Source of the DNA: Myxococcales bacterium
GTDB taxonomy: Bacteria; Myxococcota_A; Polyangia; Haliangiales; Haliangiaceae
Direction: 5' to 3'
Length of the DNA: 64,000 nucleotides
Assembly: GCA_016706545.1 (NCBI GenBank)
Contig: JADJJK010000031.1
Span: 21,650-85,649, forward strand
The notes under the pieces were generated by a model. It ran no database searches, was not told the origin of the DNA, and saw nothing but the letters and a program-made list of their open reading frames with translations. Shown in pieces: positions 30,635-30,671 of this stretch. Both the position numbers and the translations under genes were made by a program. The stretch's first letter is position 1. Every line of letters begins with the position of its first letter.

Positions 30635-30671
30635 CCGGTCGGCACGGTCGGCACGGTCGGCACGGTCGGCC
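30635..30671. repeat. 9-bp tandem repeat GGCACGGTC x ~4 between divergent plsC-like and MVP genes
   Basis: read directly. Confidence 0.7.

Follow-up and report, generated by a model that had tools for sequence, protein, structure and literature searches.

Short tandem arrays in a 64-kb window of a Myxococcales genome are lineage-specific, mostly vary between populations by whole units and are probably tolerated slippage products

A stretch of 64,000 nucleotides from a metagenome-assembled Myxococcales genome (Haliangiales, Haliangiaceae; assembly GCA_016706545.1, contig JADJJK010000031.1, positions 21,650 to 85,649; hereafter the window) contains a series of short tandem arrays, among them a perfect 9-bp array upstream of the gene for a major vault protein (MVP) homologue, which is termed the focal array here. 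Seven of these arrays had been listed in an original prediction as one recurring architecture, placed immediately 5' of start codons or in 5' coding ends, and had been taken as the hallmark of contingency (phase-variable) loci. Our analysis favours another explanation, to which we assign a probability of about 75%: the repeats are tandem duplications of the variable-number tandem repeat (VNTR) type, that is, minisatellite-like, which are generated by slippage and persist where a change in length is tolerated. The following was established: the arrays exceed chance expectation, are specific to the lineage, differ between populations by whole units, concentrate the indels, obey a frame constraint inside genes and show no preference for promoters.

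Arrays were called with Tandem Repeats Finder (TRF); overlapping rows were merged and each named array was also read in the sequence. All seven predicted arrays exist and were recovered by TRF where they had been placed. The window holds 16 non-redundant arrays with a TRF score of at least 70, of which 8 score at least 90. In 30 dinucleotide-preserving shuffles the mean was 0.1 arrays with a score of at least 70 and 0 with a score of at least 90, and codon shuffling within genes gave 0.03. The repeats are genuine and far beyond chance, and, as in VNTRs, the head-to-tail copies (units in the class of ~6-100 bp) occur well above expectation. Comparably strong arrays that had escaped the prediction start at 28969 (at 93% of its gene), 38501 and 59549 (both mid-gene), 33291 (33291-33354, in a convergent spacer), 10228 (in a co-directional spacer, as is a further array at 10364) and 36782. 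The GC content of the window is 71%. Because shadow open reading frames (ORFs) fill the genome, gene calls relied on GC by codon position together with a log-likelihood model of codon use, and key genes were checked against database proteins; exact protein matches provided the names GrpE, OmpA family, HtpG, acyltransferase, VTC domain, DUF4956, J domain and MYXO-CTERM relative. A scan of the whole window against Rfam returned no RNA family.

Variation within the species was assessed in 21 contigs from independent wastewater assemblies (ENA, Logan and JGI) and in same-species protein variants. Arrays are referred to by their first position. Copy-number differences of whole units between conserved flanks were found in independent wastewater samples at six arrays (3280, 33291-33354, 48051, 52203, 53792 and 62458), and no variation was found at 30636 (the focal array; 5 sequences), 48719 (8 contigs) and 63846 (one comparison). 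When all contigs were aligned to the window with blastn (~50 kb aligned, ~1% single-nucleotide polymorphisms, SNPs), essentially all multi-base indels fell inside TRF arrays. In addition, 9 of 41 contig alignment ends lie in an array or at most 10 bp from one, where 1.7 are expected (P = 4e-5; the contigs counted include L095, L099-L101, L001, L003, L087, L093 and L094). This excess suggests either mixtures of alleles within a sample or assembly breaks induced by the repeats. Judged from the sequences, the polymorphism between populations at the six arrays supports the notion that the arrays are hypermutable. The comparison of copy numbers across populations, which had been proposed as the check on contingency, thus gave a divided answer for the six named loci that could be compared: 3280, 48051, 52203 and 53792 vary, and 30636 and 63846 are identical. 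The original prediction was to be abandoned if copy numbers were identical everywhere; overall they are not, but at the focal array they are (5 sequences, at least 4 flanking haplotypes).

The placement of arrays at the level of the clade was determined in 1.35 Mb of sequence around MVP homologues from 79 related genomes. These have MVP identities of at most 88% and belong to other species than that of the window, and they were used for clade-level statistics and for checks of orthologous sites only; the closest relatives are uncultured members of the Kofleriaceae or Haliangiales, found in wastewater and activated sludge. The 79 loci carry on average 8.1 arrays with a score of at least 70 per 64 kb (range 0-43), and the 16 arrays of the window are high for the clade but not exceptional. 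With a score cut-off of 60, the period was divisible by 3 in 193 of 205 coding arrays (94%). The density of arrays in the relatives' spacers was 0.81/kb in convergent, ~0.5/kb in co-directional and 0.25/kb in divergent ones, and the distribution over the deciles of genes was flat, with no 5' bias. From this placement it follows that arrays avoid disruption of the reading frame, without preference for promoters or start codons. The 30636, 52203 and 53792 arrays are also missing at orthologous sites of sister species, where nearby start codons, Shine-Dalgarno (SD) sites and upstream elements are kept, so on the sites compared they are lineage-specific: young insertions and not conserved elements.

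The focal array (CGGTCGGCA, 9 bp, 3.9 copies, 100% identity; 30636-30670) is located in the divergent spacer between a gene for 1-acyl-sn-glycerol-3-phosphate acyltransferase (28921-30507, minus strand; NCBI name of the exact protein MBK7537997.1) and the MVP gene (30722-33280, plus strand; Pfam MVP_shoulder/Vault_3). It ends 51 bp upstream of the MVP ATG (30722), a start codon that is conserved, since the MDDRN start aligns across 6 species. The two species closest to that of the window (L012 and L005, with 88% and 86% MVP identity) conserve a -10-like element (CTGCTATACCCAG, 30702-30714, plus strand) that is putatively part of a promoter. Both keep the start codon and the neighbouring CTGCTATACCC element and lack the 9-bp array; conservation at the orthologous promoter, as expected of tandem binding sites for a regulator, is therefore not seen at 30636. 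The array is positioned ~37-72 bp upstream of the conserved -10-like TATACC, so it would lie upstream of the -35 position and not between a -35 and a -10 box. TCGGCA of the 9-bp unit was considered as a -35 box and rejected, the nearest copy being 44 bp from the -10-like element. Scans for a sigma70 consensus and for terminators around 30636 and 48051 found no site. The copy number was the same in 5 sequences (the window and L001-L004) despite at least 4 flanking SNP haplotypes, and a scan of JGI metagenomes with the right flank gave no match. The focal array is a young, lineage-specific run of perfect copies, fixed in copy number in every sampled population, with no sign of a switch. As to the downstream gene, bacterial MVP homologues of this kind (Pfam MVP_shoulder/Vault_3) are common across Kofleriaceae, Haliangiales and Nannocystaceae, with 5619 proteins matching at E<=1e-50. 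In sister species (L084, L085) the MVP gene is directly beside the VTC operon, from which it is separated by ~20 kb in the window; given this difference, a rearrangement or insertion has taken place.

Inside genes, the arrays of the window have units of 9, 12 or 24 bp, with which gain or loss of units cannot shift the reading frame, and the natural alleles indeed stay in frame; tracts placed to shift the frame, as in contingency loci, were not found among them. A 24-bp array (4.4 copies, 52203-52307, plus strand) forms part of the gene for a VTC-domain protein (52179-53123), whose N-terminal tail thereby contains (TSGPTLGP)n. The array is polymorphic (3 versus 4 units): exactly one PTSGPTLG unit makes the difference between same-species proteins of 314 aa and 306 aa. 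A 9-bp array (GACGTCTGT, 4.2 copies, 100% identity; 53792-53829, plus strand) encodes (TSV)4 in the n-region of a lipoprotein signal peptide (gene 53766-54533). This array had been described as abutting the lipoprotein ATG, which turned out to be incorrect. In two sister species and a third homologue the lipoprotein start is GGAGG-N8-ATG/GTG overlapping the DUF4956 stop codon, and the window retains this SD and an ATG at 53766, with an N-terminus MLPDVLPAP that corresponds to MQPRNPLAP in P0285 (MxPxxxxAP). This places the array, an in-frame insertion encoding (TSV)4, inside the ORF and not 5' of the gene; a protein variant of 252 aa (P0284) has (TSV)3. The VTC-DUF4956-lipoprotein-PPDK_N operon is also present in the sister-species contigs L084 and L085, but there it has neither the 52203 nor the 53792 array.

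Two further coding arrays had not been listed or did not vary. In the gene for a MYXO-CTERM protein (61837-63537, minus strand) an unlisted mid-gene 12-bp repeat, (D/E)PKx (62458-62485), is present in 2, 3 or 4 units, with proteins of 566, 572 or 576 aa. A 12-bp array (4.1 copies, 48719-48767, plus strand) in the 5' coding end, and thus the N-terminus, of a J-domain protein gene (48716-50206) was the same in 8 spanning contigs, and two contigs end inside it.

The operon with the 24-bp and (TSV)4 arrays showed two other features. Upstream of it lies an element of ~55 bp (52082-52136, CCTTCG..GATTCGACGGAAGATTGTCTTACGAAAATGGCACCGTGATACAAA) that is almost invariant in three species, with surrounding flanks that cannot be aligned, and that contains a TGGCAC resembling a sigma54 -24 box; the element is probably the promoter or operator of the operon. 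Furthermore, the 10-mer GACGTCTGTG, the unit of the 53792-53829 array, occurs once more at 52213-52222 in the region of the VTC 24-bp array, 1.6 kb upstream of the lipoprotein array in the same operon, which may be a coincidence or reflect a templated origin.

The most polymorphic array is that upstream of the gene for an OmpA-family protein (47061-47945, minus strand; MBK7538009.1, Pfam OmpA). It consists of 4.5 copies of an 11-bp unit (48051-48099, minus strand; gene-strand unit CGCGA[A/G]CCAAG) between the grpE stop codon and the ompA start. The stop codon of grpE (48110-48613, minus strand; database protein match) is 10 bp from the array, and the ompA ATG (47945), which is preceded by the SD GAGGTGGA, is 105 bp downstream. 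Ten sequences contained the alleles AAAG, AAG, AGG and AGGGGG, that is 3, 4 or 6 full units, and spacer lengths of 153, 163/164 or 186 bp. The alleles are not congruent with their flanks: the same allele was found on flanks ~1% apart, and different alleles on flanks 0.35-0.5% apart. This mismatch fits recurrent gain and loss of units, or recombination. By analogy with the hmw repeats of Haemophilus influenzae, the 11-bp array is the only remaining array that could plausibly serve as an expression rheostat.

The other spacer arrays are not tied to gene starts in the same way. An 18-bp array (ACGACGCAGCCGCAGGGC, 3.3 copies; 3280-3339) lies between the convergent stop codons (TAG 3264-3266; TAA complement 3359-3361) of a hypothetical gene (2343-3266, plus strand) and htpG (3359-5320, minus strand) and is thus 5' of no gene; the window has 3 units, L098 has 4, and both L096 and L097 have 2. 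GC-rich arrays of 19 bp and 12 bp (33291-33354) occupy the convergent spacer 3' of the MVP stop codon. They are polymorphic in length, with multi-base indels distinguishing L001, L002 and L004, and two contigs end within them. In another convergent spacer, between genes ending at 45329 (plus strand) and 45513 (minus strand), the slippage-prone tracts C7-G-C13 (45409-45429) and C8A6 (45496-45509) likewise occupy a promoter-free position.

A second 18-bp array (AGCACGGTGGTTGGGTCA, 4.6 copies; 39732-39814) is situated in a non-coding region of ~730 bp, 252 bp upstream of the nearest start (ATG 40067), with an ~85-bp direct repeat on both sides; a scan of JGI metagenomes with two of its units gave no match. 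The region itself (39340-40066; non-coding by GC at third codon positions) contains tandem arrays of three kinds (7 bp x3 at 39662, 18 bp x4.6 at 39732 and 10 bp x3 at 39925), together with an AT-rich patch (39630-39660) that is unusual for a 71% GC genome. The palindrome TCCGCGGA occurs 13 times in the window, with 9 of the sites within 38397-39917; the window-wide expectation is 3.65, and 13 was reached in 0 of 100 shuffles. Many of the sites extend to (G/C)TTTCCGCGGAA(A/G)C, with parS-like arms and a CCGCGG core. Five palindromes at 38402-38535 have spacings of 42, 21, 42 and 21 bp, and two pairs are part of the ~85-bp direct repeat, whose copies (39394-39475 and 39835-39917) lie on either side of the 18-bp array. 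No match to TTCCGCGGAA was found among 102 fetched loci. The palindrome cluster (38397-39917) may be an operator cluster.

Finally, a 10-bp array (GTCGAGCGCT, 6.8 copies, 81% identity; 63846-63913), bracketed by the direct repeat CATCGGACGCCGCGC (63816-63832 and 63919-63937), occupies the spacer from which the MYXO-CTERM gene and a gene for a sigma54 enhancer-binding protein diverge. It is 250-320 bp from the start of the MYXO-CTERM gene and ~70-140 bp from that of the activator gene, which begins at ~63985 (plus strand) at the window edge and encodes an FHA-sigma54-activator-HTH_8 protein (L102:1485-2936). The array is identical in L102 (a single comparison, n=1). The next gene in L102 beyond the enhancer-binding protein has a weak match to the transposase family Y1_Tnp. 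Position 5' of a start codon or in a 5' coding end held as described for 30636, 48051 and 52203, but an architecture shared by all seven named arrays did not, because of 3280 (convergent stops), 39732 (252 bp from a start), 53792 (inside the ORF) and 63846 (250-320 bp from the MYXO-CTERM gene).

In the mechanism that we propose, the arrays of this large, 71% GC, Kofleriaceae-type genome would be made and resized when replication slips or when neighbouring units exchange unequally, with new arrays arising lineage by lineage and units being gained or lost singly or in small numbers. Selection would then filter what persists: any type of intergenic spacer would tolerate an array, and inside genes only in-frame units encoding low-complexity peptide would remain, in N-terminal tails, signal-peptide n-regions and linkers. 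The apparent 5' architecture could result from this filtering together with the choice of cases near start codons in the original prediction. Several points weigh against tolerated VNTR-type duplication as the explanation. We infer the slippage mechanism and near-neutrality from the patterns described above. The first gene decile holds 4 of the 12 coding arrays of the window, the density of intergenic arrays is ~3x that of the relatives, and the envelope genes linked to arrays (OmpA, lipoprotein, MYXO-CTERM protein) are of a class typical of contingency genes. In the relatives, 34 of 60 intergenic arrays (57%) have a period divisible by 3, versus 33% expected. The invariance of the arrays in divergent spacers, 30636 and 63846, could reflect functional constraint and not neutrality. 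Also, samples were small, with 1 to 10 sequences compared per locus, and the sequences are consensus metagenome assemblies that may be chimeric. The excess of periods divisible by 3 suggests unannotated coding extensions, small ORFs or a codon-derived origin of many spacer arrays, and the clade-level data suggest that the clustering in the first decile reflects tolerant N-terminal tails and signal peptides, in addition to small numbers.

If the arrays were contingency loci, slippage would stochastically switch or tune the adjacent gene and thereby generate phenotypic heterogeneity, particularly of envelope proteins; the most plausible case would be the 11-bp ompA array, serving as a rheostat in the manner of the 7-bp hmw repeats of H. 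influenzae. Copy-number variation between populations at 48051 (3, 4 or 6 units), 53792 and 52203, the recurrence of alleles on different flanking backgrounds, the nature of the linked genes just named and the enrichment of contig ends in arrays, with the within-sample heterogeneity that it suggests, are all in line with this, and for one high-GC bacterium phase variation through the copy number of promoter tandem repeats has been described (PMC12817950). However, no difference was seen in the focal array among 5 sequences or in 63846 in the single comparison, and all coding arrays are in frame (9, 12 and 24 bp), with no frameshift switches. The promoter-free arrays in convergent spacers (3280, 33291-33354) and the mid-gene 62458 array are equally variable, and the relatives show no enrichment of arrays in divergent spacers or gene 5' ends. 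Moreover, the (TSV)n array resides within a signal peptide that is cleaved, and scans for sigma70-type promoters near 30636 and 48051 placed no promoter relative to the arrays. Taken together, the in-frame units, the equal variation of promoter-free and mid-gene arrays and the lack of a 5' or promoter bias in the clade speak against the arrays being a hallmark of contingency, and we regard contingency as unlikely. It is also doubtful that a subset of the VNTRs, namely the 11-bp ompA array and the (TSV)n lipoprotein array, provides contingency-like tuning of the envelope in this probably predatory, free-living wastewater myxobacterium. If it did, the number of units would set the efficiency of transcription, translation initiation or export and create heritable, rapidly reversible heterogeneity; this would be phase variation or a rheostat outside host-adapted pathogens, operating via long in-frame or helical-period units and not via frameshifting simple sequence repeats (SSRs).

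Some of the intergenic arrays, with 63846, 48051 and 30636 as candidates, could instead be tandem protein-binding sites, comparable to iterons or operators of the upstream-activating-sequence type, with one regulator bound per unit. The periods of 10 bp (63846) and 11 bp (48051) match the helical repeat of DNA, but that of 30636 (9 bp) is off it. The 63846 array is in a divergent spacer beside a gene for an enhancer-binding protein and has a 15-17-bp direct repeat on its two sides; furthermore, 30636 and 63846 are invariant whereas the arrays in convergent spacers vary, although this invariance comes from few sequences. The 30636 array is nonetheless missing in the two closest species that keep the promoter-like element, the 11-bp array shows no evident constraint in its range of 3 to 6 units, and the arrays could be assigned neither a known motif nor a binding protein, nor a match to Rfam or another family. 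Binding sites thus seem an improbable explanation. As the window stems from a metagenome-assembled genome (MAG) and repeats commonly break or distort assemblies, errors of long-read polishing or collapsed and expanded repeats were considered as well. Independent short-read (Illumina) assemblies from at least 8 samples reproduce the same units and conserved flanks, with differences that are exact multiples of the unit; the arrays are therefore not assembly artefacts, and this explanation was rejected as highly improbable.

If the VNTR explanation holds, the arrays can be used as strain markers for Kofleriaceae populations across wastewater plants, with the caveat that short-read MAGs of the clade break or collapse at arrays (9 of 41 contig ends). 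Full-text literature searches found no description of VNTRs or of phase variation by SSRs in myxobacteria, which agrees with the earlier assertion that such repeats had not been described for Myxococcales; this seems to be the first myxobacterial record of conspecific indel polymorphism residing nearly entirely in short tandem arrays. Hypervariability by itself is insufficient to designate a contingency locus: reading frame, position relative to promoters and genome-wide placement point to tolerated products of slippage. The array upstream of ompA would be the sole testable candidate for expression tuning.

Among known systems, the arrays are most readily compared with bacterial VNTRs or minisatellites, with which they share head-to-tail units of 9-24 bp in few copies, whole-unit differences between strains, conserved flanks, an intergenic or, when coding, in-frame position and a large, high-GC host genome. 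VNTRs are standard markers for typing by multiple-locus VNTR analysis (MLVA), for example the mycobacterial interspersed repetitive units (MIRU-VNTR) in Mycobacterium tuberculosis and the 9-12-bp VNTRs in Burkholderia and Xanthomonas. Compared with MIRUs (about 50-100 bp), the units of the window are shorter, and the variation was seen between metagenome populations and not between isolates. Long-unit SSRs are referred to, in PMC4692102 citing Mrazek et al. 2007, as characteristic of non-pathogens with large, high-GC genomes. With the SSR contingency loci of Neisseria, Haemophilus, Helicobacter and Campylobacter the arrays have in common slippage-prone tracts at surface-protein genes and length polymorphism in populations. 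Classical contingency tracts consist of units of 1-7 bp in many copies, out of frame in ORFs or at core promoter elements. The window, in contrast, has units of 9-24 bp in 3-7 copies, in frame when coding and without preference for promoters.

The promoter tandem repeats (PTRs) of M. tuberculosis have units of 54-58 bp that duplicate a whole promoter, so that copy number scales promoter dosage; the number of copies is phase-variable, and it is polyphyletic among isolates, and some of the promoters are leaderless (PMC12817950). The arrays of the window also are tandem repeats just upstream of genes in a high-GC bacterium, but their units of 9-24 bp, versus 54-58 bp, are too short to hold a complete promoter, and the focal array is invariant. 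A 7-bp repeat upstream of hmw1A/hmw2A is described as a rheostat in H. influenzae (PMC12721329). The likeness of the 11-bp array to these repeats is that it is placed between an upstream gene and the start of a gene for an outer-surface protein and that natural alleles differ in the number of units. The hmw tract has many more copies than the 11-bp ompA array, and its effect on transcript levels has been demonstrated. Overall, the arrays represent polymorphic VNTRs in an uncultured Kofleriaceae lineage, and the type of phenomenon itself is already known from other bacteria.

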